Positions 28,866 through 33,254 of a DNA stretch of 64,000 nt are shown in pieces. Position 1 is the first letter of the stretch; each line of letters starts with the position of its first letter. The DNA is from an uncultured Actinomycetes bacterium (lineage in GTDB: Bacteria; Chloroflexota; Dormibacteria; Dormibacterales; Dormibacteraceae): the NCBI GenBank assembly GCA_964559855.1, contig CAZLJC010000002.1, forward strand, positions 3,900 to 67,899, read 5' to 3'. The notes beneath the pieces are model-generated. The model saw only the letters and a list, made by a program, of their open reading frames with translations. It did no database searches and was not told where the DNA came from. The position numbers were made by a program, and so were the translations under genes.

Positions 28866-29714
28866 TTATCTGCCGCGCCGCTGCACGAACTGGAACCCGA
28901 ATCGCCCCTTGATGCACAGGTGGCCGGACGTCACGCTGTGGTCGAGGGGCGACGTCACCTTCACGATCGTGTTGTCCTGCACGTGCAGCTCGAGCATGCA
29001 GCCCACGCCGCAGTAGGGGCACACCGTCTCGGTCACCGTCTGCGCCGGCCCGTCCCACGTGCCGGCGGCTCGCATATCGTGCTCGCTCTTGAACATCAGG
29101 GCGCCGGTCGGGCAGACGCCGATGCAGTTGCCACAGTAGACGCACGCGGAATCCGGCAGCCCCACGTCGAACTCGGTGGAGATGTGGGCGTCGAAGCCCC
29201 GTCCCGCGACCCCGATCGCGAACGTGTTCTGCGCCTCCGCGCCACACGCCTCGACGCACTTGTAGCAGAGGATGCAGCGCGAGTAGTCGCGCACGTACAG
29301 GTCGTTGTCGACCTTCGCCGGCTGCGCGACGGTGGCCACGGACCCGAAGCGCGCCGGCTGCGCTCCATACTCCCGCATCCACCCATGCACCTGGGGCGAC
29401 GCCAGCGACACGTCGACGGACGACCCCACAAGCTCGAGCACCAGGCGCCGGCTGTGCTTCACGCGCTCGGAGCCGGTGCGGACCTTCATGCCCGCCTCGA
29501 CCTGGCGCGAGCACGCGGGCACCAGCGCGCGCGATCCCTCGAGCTCCACGACGCACGCGCGGCATACGTTGACCGGCGCGAGGTTGTCGAGCTGGCACAG
29601 CGTCGGCGTGTCGATCGCCAGGCGCCGGCACGCGTCCAGGATGGTGGAACCCTCCACCACCTCGACCTCGCGGCCGTCGACGGTGATGGCCACCATCCGC
29701 TTCGCCTCAGGCAT
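28866..29714 (-). CDS. formate dehydrogenase Fe-S subunit, equivalent to the N-terminal part of an FdsA/FdhF-type alpha subunit (2Fe-2S, 2x[4Fe-4S] ferredoxin, Mo-enzyme Fe4S4 domain); ends just before the molybdopterin domain
   Basis: …LCQLDNLAPVNVCRACVVE…PAC…; CILCYKCVEAC…CVYCGNCIGVCP; CPYCGVGC…GHLCIKGRFGFQFVQRRGR-stop. Confidence 0.85.
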   Translation of the reverse strand: MPEAKRMVAITVDGREVEVVEGSTILDACRRLAIDTPTLCQLDNLAPVNVCRACVVELEGSRALVPACSRQVEAGMKVRTGSERVKHSRRLVLELVGSSVDVSLASPQVHGWMREYGAQPARFGSVATVAQPAKVDNDLYVRDYSRCILCYKCVEACGAEAQNTFAIGVAGRGFDAHISTEFDVGLPDSACVYCGNCIGVCPTGALMFKSEHDMRAAGTWDGPAQTVTETVCPYCGVGCMLELHVQDNTIVKVTSPLDHSVTSGHLCIKGRFGFQFVQRRGR

Positions 29715-31347
29715 TCAGCACCGGCAGATGCTTCAGGCCGGACTCGATCGCGTTCCCCGCGGTCTGGCCGAGGCCGCAGATCGAGGCGTCGCGCATGGCC
29801 TGCGCGATGTCGCCGAGCAGGGCGACGTCCGCCGTCGTGTCACCTCCGCGCCCCAGCATGCGCTCCAGGATCTCCTCCTGCCGCTTGGTGCCGACGCGGC
29901 ACGGCACGCACTGCCCGCACGACTCGTCGCGGAAGAAGCGGGCGATGCGCAGCATCACCTTTCTGAGGTCGACGGACCGGTCGAACACGATCACGGCTCC
30001 CGAGCCCAGGGTGGCGCCGACCGCGCGCGTGCCCTCGAAGCTCAGCGGCACCTCCAGCTGGTCGGGGGCCAGGAACGAGCCCGCGGCGCCGCCCAGCAGC
30101 ACCGCCTGCACGTCGCGCGCGCCCGCCAGCTCGAGCAGTTCGCGCAGCGGCGTGCCCAGCGCGAGCTCGTACACGCCAGGCCGGGCCACCGAGCCCGACA
30201 CGCAGAAGAGCCGCGTGTCCTTGAACTCTCCGCCGACCACGTCGACCACGTTCACCAGCGTCTCGACGTTGTTGACCAGCGTCGGGCGGCCGAACAGGCC
30301 GGACTGCACCGGGTAGGGCGGCTTGTTGCGAGGCTCCCCCCGCCTCCCCTCCAGCGAGTTGAACAGCGCCGTCTCCTCGCCGCAGATGTACGCGCCGGCG
30401 CCCCTGCGCACCTCGATGTCGACGTCGAGCAGACCCGCCGCCCGCGCCTGCGCGATCGCGCTTTCCACCCGCGCGCGGGCGAGCGGATACTCGGTGCGGA
30501 CGTAGACGTGACCGACGGCACAGCCCGTCGCGAGGGCCGCGATCGCCATGCCCTCCACCACCGCGAAGGGGTCGTGCTCGAGGACCACGCGGTCCTTGAA
30601 GGTTCCGGGCTCGGACTCGTCCGCGTTGCAGACCAGGTGGCGCGGTGCCGGCGCCTGCGCCACCGCCTCCCACTTGCGGCCCGTGGGAAAGGCGGCCCCG
30701 CCGCGGCCCACCAGCTTCGAGGCGGTGAGCTCCTCGATCACGCGCGGGCCGCCGATATCGCGCGCCCTCCGCAGGGCCGAGAACCCTCCGGCGGCGCGAT
30801 AGCTCTCGAGGCTGCCCGGGTCGACATGGCCCACCCGGCGCAGCAGCGACACCGCGGCTCGCACCGGAGGCTCCGCCGCCGCCGCGACCGTCTCCGCCTC
30901 ATACCGGGCGCCGAAGCGCTCGACGAGCTCGGCCGGCGCGCGGTCGCACAGGCCCAGGCACGGCGCCCCCCGGCCGCCGGCGTCCGCTCCGGCGACCAGG
31001 CACCCCAGGTCGTCGCACACGTGCCGGACCTCGTTCTGCGGCCCCTCCAGCGCGAACCTGGCGTAGAAGCTCACCACGCCGTACGCCTCGGCGGGCGGGA
31101 TCGAGAGCCGGCGGCACGCGTACTCGAGCGCACCGCGGCTCACCCATCCGGTGCGGTCCTGGATGGCGTGCAGCGCCGGCAGCAGGAGGTGCCTTCGCTC
31201 GCGCATCGCGCGGCCCCCCCGCGCCAGGTGCCCGTCGACCGACGTGCGCGTGCCGCCGTCCCACAGCGAGGCGGGCGGCCCGAGGATCTCGTCGACCGCG
31301 GCCACCTCCTCCGCCGTCGCCGGGCCGCCGGTGGTCCGGATGTCCAT
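29707..31347 (-). CDS. NuoE-NuoF fusion (NAD(H)-binding FMN/Fe-S diaphorase subunit of formate dehydrogenase)
   Basis: From MDIRTTGG (ATG 31347). NuoE-like HVCDDLGC…CLGLCDRAP. NuoF-like GRGGAAFPTGRKW, CNADESEPGTFKDR, ESCGQCVPCRVG…ICGLG. Confidence 0.88.
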   Translation of the reverse strand: MDIRTTGGPATAEEVAAVDEILGPPASLWDGGTRTSVDGHLARGGRAMRERRHLLLPALHAIQDRTGWVSRGALEYACRRLSIPPAEAYGVVSFYARFALEGPQNEVRHVCDDLGCLVAGADAGGRGAPCLGLCDRAPAELVERFGARYEAETVAAAAEPPVRAAVSLLRRVGHVDPGSLESYRAAGGFSALRRARDIGGPRVIEELTASKLVGRGGAAFPTGRKWEAVAQAPAPRHLVCNADESEPGTFKDRVVLEHDPFAVVEGMAIAALATGCAVGHVYVRTEYPLARARVESAIAQARAAGLLDVDIEVRRGAGAYICGEETALFNSLEGRRGEPRNKPPYPVQSGLFGRPTLVNNVETLVNVVDVVGGEFKDTRLFCVSGSVARPGVYELALGTPLRELLELAGARDVQAVLLGGAAGSFLAPDQLEVPLSFEGTRAVGATLGSGAVIVFDRSVDLRKVMLRIARFFRDESCGQCVPCRVGTKRQEEILERMLGRGGDTTADVALLGDIAQAMRDASICGLGQTAGNAIESGLKHLPVLNA

Positions 31348-33254
31348 CAGCCGCCCGACGCGACCGGGATCTTCTCGATCCGGATCGCGGTCGCCTTGAA
31401 CTCCGCGGTGCCGGACTTCGGGTCCCACGCGTCGACGGTGAGGATGTTGGTCGAGGCCTGGTCGGGGAAGTGCAGCGTCATGAACGCGAGCCCGGGGCGC
31501 AGCGAGGGCTCGACGCCGATTGCGACCTCGATCGCTCCGCGCCGGGAGCTGGCGCGCACGGATTCGCCTTCGGCGACGCCCAGCGCGGCCGCGTCCTCCG
31601 GCGAGATGAGCAGCGCCTCGCCGCGGCGCAGCGGCGAGGTGTACTCGCCCGTCTGCACGCCGGTGTTGAACGAGTCGAGCCTCCGGCCGGTGGTGAGCCG
31701 GATGGGAAACTCGTCGCTCAGCGCATCGACCGGAGGGTCGTGGTCGACGGCGTGGAACGGCGCGCGAGGCCCCTCGACGGGCTCCTGCCACAGCCGCGCA
31801 TGGAGAAACTGCGTACCCGGGTGGGAGGTGTCTGGGCACGGCCACTGGATGCCGCCGAGCTCGTCCAGCCGCGCGTACGACATCCCGGCGTGCATCGGCG
31901 ACAGCGCGCGCAGCTCGTCCCACACCTGCTCGGCGGTGGGCTCGCCCCATTCGCAGCCGAGACGCCTGGCCAGCTCGCAGATGATCGCGATATCGTCGCG
32001 CGCACCATCCGGTGGATCGAGCGCCCGGCGCACGCGCTGCACGCGGCGCTCGCTGTTCGTCACCGTGCCCTCCGACTCCGCCCAGCCCGCGGCCGCCGGC
32101 AGCACCACGTGCGCAAGCTCGGCGGTCTGCGTCAGCAGGATCTCCTGGACCACGAGGTGCTCGAGCCCTCCGAGCAGGCGCACCGCGCGCGCCTGGTCGG
32201 CCTCGCTTCGCGCGGGGTTCTCCCCGATCACGTAGGCGGCGGTGAGACGCCCGTGCTCCATCGCCTCGAACATCTCGCTCAGGTGAAGGCCCTTCTCGGC
32301 CGGAAAGTGCGCGCCGCCCCACGCGCGCTCGAACTTCGCGTGCACCTCGGGGTCCTCGAGGTCCTGGAACCCGGGCAGCCGCGCCGGGATCGCCCCCATG
32401 TCACCGCCGCCCTGCACGTTGTTCTGGCCGCGCAGCGGGTTCAGCCCGCAGCCGTAGCGCCCGACCTTGCCCGTGAGCAATCCCAAGTTGATCAGCGCGA
32501 CCACGTTGTCGGTGGCGTTGTGGTGCTCGGTGATGCCGAGCGTCCAGCAGATCATCCCGGTGCGGGCCCGAGCGTAGTCGAGCGCCACCTCCTCGATCGC
32601 CGCGGCGGGAACTCCCGTCGCCTGCTCGGCGAACTCCAGCGTGTAGGACTCGACCTTGCGCGCGAAGGCGTCGTAGCCGGAGGTCGAGTTGGCGACGAAG
32701 CGCTGGTCGGCCAGGCCGGCGTGGATGATCACACGCGCCATCGCGTTGGCCAGGGCGATATCGCTGCCGACGTCGATGCCCAGCCACATATCGGCCCACT
32801 GCGCCGAGGTCGTCCGGCGGGGGTCGACGGCGTAGAGCCGCGCTCCGTTGCGCACCCCGCGGAGCAGGTGATGGAAGAAGATCGGATGGGTCTCGCGCGC
32901 GTTGGAGCCCCACAGGATGATCACCTCGGTGTCCTCGACCTCGCGATAGGACGACGTCCCGCCCCCCGCCCCGAACACCGTCGCCAGACCGGCGACGCTG
33001 GGGGCGTGTCAAGTCCGGTTGCAGCTGTCGACGTTGTTGCTCTGCATCACGGCGCGCGCGAACTTCTGCGCCATGTAGTTCATCTCGTTGGTCTGCTTGG
33101 AGCAGCTGAACAGGCCGAAGGCCTCAGGCCCGCGCGCTCGCGCGGCCTCGAAGCCGGCCGCCGCGCGTCGCAGCGCCTCCTCCCAGGTCGCGGGGCGAAG
33201 GCGGCCGCCCTCTCTGACCAGCGGCTCGGTCAGACGGCGCAGGCCGTCACCCAT
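31347..33254 (-). CDS. fdhA: formate dehydrogenase catalytic (molybdopterin) subunit with in-frame UGA read as selenocysteine; lacks its own N-terminal Fe-S domains
   Basis: ORFs 33009..33254 and 31347..32978 are in the same frame (1908 nt = 636 codons), separated only by TGA 33009-33011. The context is …NNVDSCNRT-U-HAPSVAGLATVFGAGGG…, matching the Sec/Cys-His active site. …LRGQNNVQGG… lies downstream. Confidence 0.85.
32979..32997 (-). promoter_or_regulatory. putative bacterial SECIS hairpin (CGUCGCC-GGUCU-GGCGACG) downstream of the in-frame UGA
   Basis: A perfect 7-bp stem starts 12 nt after the UGA. The loop GGU starts at nt 22 counted from the U of UGA, the same spacing and GGUC loop as I recall for the E. 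coli fdhF SECIS. Confidence 0.7.

Follow-up and report, generated by a model that had tools for sequence, protein, structure and literature searches.

Two groups of metal-dependent formate dehydrogenases are among the closest described counterparts of the operon reported here. In the tungsten-dependent, NAD-linked formate dehydrogenase 1 of M. extorquens (MeFDH1; 7e5z, 7vw6, 7xqw), the alpha subunit is a single 107-kDa polypeptide and the operon order is fdh1b-fdh1a (PMC13396061). The alpha subunit holds one 2Fe-2S and three 4Fe-4S clusters, and the beta subunit, a NuoE-NuoF fusion, holds flavin mononucleotide (FMN), a 4Fe-4S, and a 2Fe-2S cluster (PMC13397495, section 2.4.4). The NAD-dependent Mo enzymes FdsABG(D) of R. 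capsulatus and C. necator (6tg9/6tga, 6vw7) combine NuoE-, NuoF-, and NuoG-like parts with a Mo module, and R. capsulatus FdsA has four 4Fe-4S clusters (PMC13397495). In a 2026 review of metal-dependent formate dehydrogenases, the NAD-dependent group has fused alpha subunits only. The operon described here lies in a 64,000-nucleotide stretch of DNA, hereafter the window, from an uncultured bacterium of the Dormibacteraceae (assembly GCA_964559855.1, contig CAZLJC010000002.1, positions 3,900 to 67,899). Its alpha subunit is encoded in two separate genes, divided after the domain that carries the pterin-adjacent 4Fe-4S cluster (FS0), with a gene for a NuoE-NuoF fusion between them.

The operon consists of three minus-strand genes at 33254..28866, here called MO, EF, and FS, with ends that overlap or abut in a window of about 72% G+C. 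MO (33254..31347) encodes the molybdopterin-containing catalytic part of a formate dehydrogenase without the Fe4S4 (FS0) domain, EF (31347..29707) encodes the NuoE-NuoF fusion of 546 aa, and FS (29714..28866) encodes an Fe-S protein of 282 aa. An earlier, sequence-only reading of the window had proposed that the alpha subunit is split and that the order is Mo domain, NuoE-F, and Fe-S domain. Its gene coordinates, protein ends, and junctions were all recovered on re-reading the sequence, and the split and the order agreed with domain profiles, with the alignment to FdsA, and with recurrence in other genomes.

MO is 635 aa long, counting selenocysteine (Sec) at position 82, and its N-terminus reads MGDGLRRLTEPL (MGDGLRRLTEPLVREGG for its start). 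The Pfam scan detected Molybdopterin at residues 7-430 (PF00384, 1.4e-66), beginning at profile position 1, and Molydop_binding at residues 519-622 (PF01568, 2.1e-25), and did not find a Molybdop_Fe4S4 domain in MO. Residues 6-626 matched positions 52-672 of the TIGR01591 profile with 640.7 bits, just under the cut-off of 666.25. The PDB matches of MO were the FdhF of the T. kivui hydrogen-dependent CO2 reductase (HDCR), E. coli FdhH, and R. capsulatus FdsA, and the FdhF-type proteins were the closest solved relatives (E. coli FdhH, 1aa6, and T. kivui HDCR FdhF, 7qv7; 486 and 456 bits). The active-site motifs were also present: U82-H83 in SCNRT-U-HAPSVAGL and LRGQNNVQG, which aligned with the motif of E. 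coli FdhH. 'C/UH RGQ' is the class I formate dehydrogenase motif (PMC8808070), and MO has both the Sec/Cys-His pair and the RGQ arginine expected of the alpha subunit of a Mo/W-bis-pyranopterin formate dehydrogenase. The U/C-H and RGQ motifs are common to MO and the FdhF proteins, but the FdhF proteins hold their own FS0 and Lys44 within residues 1-60, and MO starts at the equivalent of residue 61. A full alpha subunit would carry the FS0 4Fe-4S domain and the adjacent lysine on the same polypeptide, and both are absent from MO. The earlier claim that MO lacks Fe4S4 cysteines of its own was borne out, since its Pfam domain begins at residue 7 and its alignments begin at residue 61 of FdhH and residue 308 of FdsA. 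Also, no CxxCxxxC motif was found in the in-frame sequence upstream of MO in the relatives.

The segment missing from MO is encoded by FS. Pfam placed Fer2_4 at FS residues 6-82, Fer4_Nqo3/Fer4 with two ferredoxin-type 4Fe-4S motifs at 143-206, and Molybdop_Fe4S4 right at the C-terminal end, at 226-278. The cysteines comprise four for a 2Fe-2S cluster, two Cys4 ferredoxin motifs, and the FS0 motif C232/C235/C239/C267. The protein ends with CPYCGVGC...GHLCIKGRFGFQFVQRRGR and then the stop codon, five residues past GHLCIKGRFGFQFV, so that the clean end after the Fe4S4 motif noted earlier could be seen both in the sequence and in the Pfam domain. Right after the FS0 cysteines, Lys269 in the CIKG motif corresponds to E. 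coli FdhH Lys44, which is essential for activity and cluster retention (PMC12176258). FS is the equivalent of the N-terminal arm of FdsA/Fdh1A plus the FS0 domain, and a single alpha subunit with the NuoG-like arm covalently joined to the Mo domain was found neither in the window nor in any related locus examined.

The breakpoint was mapped by alignment to fused alpha subunits. FS residues 8-279 matched R. capsulatus FdsA 25-305 (6tg9_A), and MO residues 7-626 matched FdsA 308-931. FS residues 2-279 matched M. extorquens Fdh1A 64-341 (7vw6_A), so all of FS aligns with the N-terminal arm of Fdh1A, whose 63-residue N-terminal extension has no counterpart here. FS 230-282 matched TIGR01591 positions 1-53, and MO 7-629 matched E. 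coli FdhH 61-688. The break therefore maps between FdsA residues 305 and 308, or TIGR01591 position 52/53. The cut falls within a four-residue linker, ...KGRFxFxFV / RLTxPL, with no residues lost or duplicated. These alignments uphold the proposal that MO starts with the segment that normally follows KGRFG..FV. They also tie FS to formate dehydrogenase rather than to another enzyme, because its last 53 residues are positions 1-53 of TIGR01591 and the genes co-occur. As the sequence-only reading had it, the cluster next to the Mo centre would come in trans from a gene two places downstream, and the FS0 cysteines are indeed all on FS and none on MO. Since FS0 and Lys269 are both on FS, the lysine adjoining the cluster should likewise be supplied in trans, so that FS would provide both the first electron relay and an active-site-proximal residue. 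Within the formate dehydrogenase lineage, one Mo/W-bis-pyranopterin enzyme, formylmethanofuran dehydrogenase, is already known to be made as two polypeptides (FwdB/FwdD). That split removes the C-terminal cap (Molydop_binding) and leaves FS0 with the catalytic domain, whereas the split here removes FS0 and the Fe-S arm instead.

EF resembles the MeFDH1 beta subunit, which is likewise a NuoE-NuoF fusion. The Pfam domains of EF, 2Fe-2S_thioredx (49-123), Complex1_51K (209-368), SLBB, and NADH_4Fe-4S (464-541), agreed with the earlier view that a NuoE-NuoF fusion lies between the two halves of alpha. EF has the motifs of NuoE-like and NuoF-like proteins for a 2Fe-2S cluster, FMN/NAD(H) binding, and one 4Fe-4S cluster, and its best solved relative was the M. 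extorquens FDH1 beta subunit (7e5z_B 47-561, E 3.7e-98). The count of cofactor motifs in the three proteins equals that of MeFDH1. The two systems differ in that MeFDH1 has a fused alpha subunit with Cys at the metal, while here alpha is split after FS0, the predicted ligand is Sec, and the order is MO-EF-FS. The FdsABG(D) enzymes share the plan of NuoE-, NuoF-, and NuoG-like parts plus a Mo module, but FdsG and FdsB are separate proteins that are fused as EF here, FdsD is absent here, FdsA is fused, and the metal ligand is Cys rather than Sec. One of the four 4Fe-4S clusters of FdsA is of the His-Cys3 type, and its motif, H-x3-C-x2-C-x5-C, is absent from FS. The motif is missing from Fdh1A as well, which has no cysteines in the aligned stretch. 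Among fused relatives, it lies between the 2Fe-2S and ferredoxin domains in P0237, P0265, and P0266, and the nearest fused relative, P0207, is also without it.

The first gene was earlier said to span 33254 to 31347, and this span was confirmed. It is not an uninterrupted open reading frame (ORF), however, as an in-frame TGA at codon 82 (33011..33009, minus strand) had gone unmentioned. The ORF list breaks MO at this codon into 33254..33009 (81 aa) and 32978..31347 (543 aa). The context, SCNRT-TGA-HAPSVAGL, aligned with the active-site stretch ...U-H-x-PSVAGL of E. coli FdhH, which makes TGA the putative catalytic Sec codon. TGA occupied this site in 69/69 related loci that cover it, with the motif SCNRT-U-HAPSV[A/V]GL.

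An element resembling a Sec insertion sequence (SECIS) follows the codon at 33008..32967 on the minus strand, with an apical hairpin and a flanking lower stem. The hairpin (32997..32979, CGUCGCC-GGUCU-GGCGACG) begins 11 nt 3' of the UGA, and the region folds with -38.9 kcal/mol (z -2.3). Conservation was measured over 62 distinct segment sequences from related loci. The loop GGTCT was invariant in 62/62, and six stem pairs were 98-100% paired. Pair 18/30 was C-G in 55/62 and G-C in 7/62, a switch made by two synonymous third-position changes (Val GTC to GTG and Ala GCG to GCC). Third codon positions were fixed within the loop and freely variable outside the hairpin. The element thus has the features of bacterial fdhF-type SECIS elements: selection has preserved a hairpin that begins about 11 nt from the UGA and has GGUC in its apical loop. 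The SECIS of E. coli fdhF is of the same type and lies at the same distance from its UGA. The invariant loop, the compensatory synonymous changes, and the TGA in all 69 loci together mark MO as a predicted selenoprotein of 635 residues. No Rfam family matched in the window in a scan at gathering thresholds and, hence, there is no independent SECIS call. Sec does not force the split, because fused Sec-containing relatives occur (L091); nonetheless, it was kept in all 69 split-family loci that cover the site. Two proteins of 357-362 aa (P0205, P0236) were considered as another type of split and rejected, since L091 showed such proteins to be the N-terminal parts of fused Sec enzymes that gene callers cut at the TGA (362 + 525 aa).

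The three genes are tightly joined. The MO stop and EF start share one base in TGATG (31345..31349, minus strand), and the EF stop and FS start overlap by 8 nt (29707..29714, minus strand, ATGCCTGA), with an alternative FS start at 29696, 8 nt past a GAGG. An overlap of 0-1 nt or an abutment was found at the MO/EF junction in about 33 related loci, and the 8-nt EF/FS overlap was also called in five contigs of close relatives (L001-L005). The MO-EF-FS junctions are translationally coupled. The tight stop/start overlaps had been taken as a sign of a genuine co-translated operon rather than decay, and their conservation among relatives supports that view. Upstream of MO, a SBP_bac_5 solute-binding protein, a short-chain dehydrogenase, and a class I/II aminotransferase are encoded head-to-tail at 33281-36994 on the minus strand, with the MO start only 26 nt beyond the aminotransferase stop. 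Given the synteny of this block among Dormibacterota relatives, the operon may include more than three genes in that phylum.

Next, recurrence was examined in a scan of related loci that used one genome per species. The 80 best loci (65-86% identity) were retained, and gene order was mapped by tblastn with the three window proteins. By their record titles, 28/80 loci were labelled as Acidobacteriota lineages, 21/80 as Actinomycetota, 11/80 as Chloroflexota, 8/80 as Dormibacterota, and 5/80 as the Dormibacterota-like 'Chloroflexi CF_', with 7/80 under other labels. The order MO-EF-FS on one strand was present in about 65 of the 80, and most of the remainder were too short to show MO. The same order was seen in the five contigs of close relatives and was kept in the more distant L089 (59% FS identity) and L086 (about 43%). 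In all, about 67 independent loci have the same split and order. The FS frame stopped 0-33 codons past the alignment end in all loci, and no FS0 motif was found upstream of MO in any related locus examined. FS accompanied EF wherever the flank sufficed and accompanied MO in nearly all loci. Two long-read, 50%-representative entries (P0159, P0199) were partly garbled by frameshifts and were used for gene order only.

The nearest FS homologues were hundreds of proteins of about 289 aa with 83-89% identity, and their named sources were metagenome-assembled genomes (MAGs) labelled Candidatus Dormibacteraeota or 'Chloroflexi bacterium'. The contigs with two of these have the aminotransferase, MO, EF, and FS in the order of the window, with MO called as 81 + 541 aa or, by NCBI, as 633 aa. 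A cultured host was not found among the best 120 matches to the Trebonia-type FS, which were MAG or metagenome entries only, nor among the 80 best loci. Four loci with 70-84% FS identity came from MAGs binned as Verrucomicrobiia (L007), Candidatus Micrarchaeaceae archaeon (L010), Acidoferrum (L012), and Nanopelagicaceae (L020). L007 and L010 share the Dormibacterota-specific upstream aminotransferase with the window (85-87% identity) and are probably mis-binned. In one Chloroflexia locus (L067, about 1500-2100), a second, conventional Sec formate dehydrogenase-like gene with an FS0 motif of its own (CPYCAVGC ... NQARI-U-HSATVPGL) immediately precedes the split cassette. In 25 scanned loci, a gene for FdhD, which acts as a sulfurtransferase in formate dehydrogenase maturation, stands no more than 6 kb away, in many cases right before MO, and this supports the assignment to formate dehydrogenase.

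A split gene could in principle be imitated by a misassembled junction or by an fdsA pseudogene with a frameshift or rearrangement, and such artefacts exist: the metagenomic contig L087 has the FS and MO parts in adjacent collinear ORFs, with the MO frame two bases off. L087 was tried as a collinear split and rejected as a frameshifted fused gene, because its FS frame runs through RLTVPLVR and its MO frame resumes out of register. By contrast, the window and the roughly 67 independent loci share one breakpoint in the linker, at identical residues and with a proper stop and start. All three of their ORFs are intact, with 48-87% protein identity across phyla, and the junctions are translationally coupled. 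The NCBI annotation of GCA_005880735.1 also calls the same genes, with MO at its full length of 633 aa. The sequence-only reading had named misassembly or inversion as a danger, and the same order, split point, and tight junctions occur in independently assembled contigs from many studies and phyla. With the same split and order in about 67 independent loci, chance falls far short of explaining the arrangement. Decay and misassembly are excluded; we give them almost no weight as an explanation, and the split arrangement is a widespread family, not a peculiarity of this genome.

The remaining alternatives accept the genes and differ on what they make. FS-EF might stand alone as an NAD(H):Fe-S diaphorase module shared by several catalytic partners, with MO as an exchangeable or transient client. 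NuoEF/NuoG-like modules are known to be reused in hydrogenases and bifurcating enzymes, both of which were among the PDB matches, and some Chloroflexota loci (L074, L078) have MO apart from EF-FS. Nevertheless, the C-terminal domain of FS is the FS0 domain specific to Mo enzymes and matches the first 53 positions of TIGR01591, the pterin-contacting lysine is on FS, MO has no cluster of its own, and the linkage of MO to EF-FS is kept in about 65/80 loci, which makes this alternative unlikely. An electron-bifurcating formate dehydrogenase of the Bfu/HylABC-FdhF2 type, which would also need ferredoxin, is less likely still. FS and EF have good PDB matches in HydA and HydB, which are subunits of bifurcating hydrogenases (8a6t, 7q4v, 7p5h), and the distant member L086 adjoins genes for formate-tetrahydrofolate (THF) ligase and FolD, as in acetogen-like C1 pathways. 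Yet EF has only the NuoE 2Fe-2S, FMN, SLBB, and single 4Fe-4S domains and none of the extra ferredoxin-type cluster domains of Bfu-beta, FS is without even the His-Cys3 cluster motif, and the best EF match is the beta subunit of the non-bifurcating MeFDH1. The hosts carry soil-lineage labels (Dormibacterota, Acidobacteriota, Actinomycetota, Chloroflexota), and these lineages are mainly aerobic. Given a cofactor inventory equal to that of MeFDH1 and no Bfu-type extra cluster domains, a simple NAD(H)-linked formate dehydrogenase or CO2 reductase seems most likely. In L086 (1868-3216 and 13280-13924), the split cassette lies directly downstream of the ligase and FolD genes and near a gene for a glycine-cleavage T protein, a setting that hints at a part in C1 metabolism linked to THF in this lineage.

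Our preferred reading is that the trio very probably encodes one cytoplasmic NAD(H)-linked, Sec-containing, Mo- or W-dependent formate dehydrogenase with alpha as two polypeptides. By its catalytic and cofactor motifs, it is a predicted enzyme of the Fdh1AB/FdsABG type, but without a single alpha subunit carrying its own FS0. MO would bear the metal-pterin site with Sec82, His83, and the RGQ arginine; FS would bear the 2Fe-2S cluster, two ferredoxin-type 4Fe-4S clusters, the pterin-adjacent FS0, and Lys269; and EF would act as the fused NuoE-NuoF module with 2Fe-2S, 4Fe-4S, and FMN. Electrons would pass from formate to Mo/W, the pterin, FS0, the two 4Fe-4S clusters, and the 2Fe-2S cluster of FS, and onward through the 4Fe-4S cluster of EF and FMN to NAD+. 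The enzyme may also run in reverse and reduce CO2. With FS0 and the lysine both supplied by FS, no activity is expected of MO on its own, and the last approximately 55 residues of FS would have to dock on MO in an obligate heteromer.

Several points weigh against this reading. Assembly in trans is deduced from homology. In the Chloroflexota locus L074, an opposite-strand subtilase gene lies between MO and EF-FS, and in another, L078, there is no MO within 4 kb of EF-FS; these exceptions indicate that MO, EF, and FS are not always one transcription unit and that the parts are independent genes. A tRNA scan of the 64 kb found no tRNA-Sec, and neither selA/selB/selD nor molybdenum-cofactor genes were seen in the window in a Pfam search of 27 other ORFs. 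With no Sec machinery in the window, Sec decoding rests on the conserved TGA and SECIS. Also, the collinear-split intermediate (EF-FS-MO) that might be expected on the way to the present order was not found among the loci examined.

Cyclic rotation of the presumed ancestral order, EF-(FS.MO), gives MO-EF-FS. The order fdh1b-fdh1a of MeFDH1 and the order nuoE-nuoF-fdsA of the fused relative L090 both rotate in this way. From gene order, the simplest route would be that the operon was duplicated in tandem and that the first EF-FS and the last MO were then lost. The 65-75% identity of FS and MO between different phyla suggests that the three-gene cassette may have moved horizontally among soil phyla. 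A bolder proposal, possible though rather doubtful, is that the enzyme is an adaptive, obligately trans-assembled selenoenzyme in which FS0 and the lysine are split off and MO is translated first. The slow steps of Sec insertion, Mo/W-bis-pyranopterin insertion, and sulfuration would then occur on an open, cluster-free MO apoprotein, which a pre-assembled EF-FS module would cap afterwards. An abortive stop at the UGA would free only an 81-residue peptide; in the fused form, it would free a 380-residue Fe-S fragment, a potential poison of NuoEF. The cassette would then have passed horizontally between dominant soil phyla, where it would serve for efficient NAD-linked oxidation of formate or reduction of CO2.

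The trp operon lies directly downstream of the formate dehydrogenase operon, and the remaining genes of the window are housekeeping genes, including PBP, three Mrp/Nuo antiporter-like genes, SOD, GAPDH, WhiA, and UvrABC. A small plus-strand ORF (28541-28839) is convergent on FS and ends 27 nt from it, with a hydrophobic N-terminus (MGKFTNLVLVAAAAALIVIGV), a Pro-rich middle, and a poly-Gly tail (GGGGGGGNGGGGGGGDGD). Between this ORF and a HhH-GPD gene is a lower-GC intergenic array (28185-28473) of about 4-5 tandem copies of an approximately 58-nt unit (AATTGCACGCCTTTTGCGCCAAACGAGCCAA; TRF score 299-380), in which CRISPR-like unique spacers are absent. The HhH-GPD gene (27229-28152, minus strand) encodes a base-excision-repair-like protein with a low-complexity Ser/Gly-rich N-terminal extension of about 140 residues in its longest ORF, and its true start may be further downstream. 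The antiporter-like genes are three consecutive Proton_antipo_M genes (2312-7493, minus strand; NuoL/M/N- or Mrp-like), with no other nuo genes recognised adjacent to them. Farther along, a pyridoxal phosphate-dependent (PALP) enzyme (12872-14323, minus strand) has an N-terminal extension of about 140 residues, of which residues 79-102 gave a short match to a NinF zinc-ribbon-like profile.

Full-text literature searches, with subscription-only papers outside their scope, found no description of an alpha subunit split after FS0. The arrangement is apparently previously undescribed, though conserved in many uncultured soil bacteria. No NCBIfam model reached its cut-off for MO, EF, or FS. Databases name FS '2Fe-2S iron-sulfur cluster-binding protein', 'predicted molybdopterin-dependent oxidoreductase YjgC', or 'NADP-reducing hydrogenase subunit HndD', and public records often call MO as two fragments at the TGA. 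With such generic names and fragment calls, metabolic reconstructions are likely to miss or misread the enzyme.

This is apparently the first natural formate dehydrogenase noted in which FS0 and the essential pterin-adjacent lysine would be apart from the polypeptide with the metal site. The family would thus offer a natural experiment in the assembly of an active site with its first electron relay. In heterologous production of MeFDH1, the main bottleneck is reported to be the maturation of the large alpha subunit (PMC13396061). A naturally split alpha subunit, with smaller parts that would fold separately, would be an obvious template for engineering CO2-reducing biocatalysts. Homologues of this Sec-dependent cassette are numerous in public metagenome collections and, if the enzyme works as proposed, the family would bear on selenium use and formate turnover in soils.

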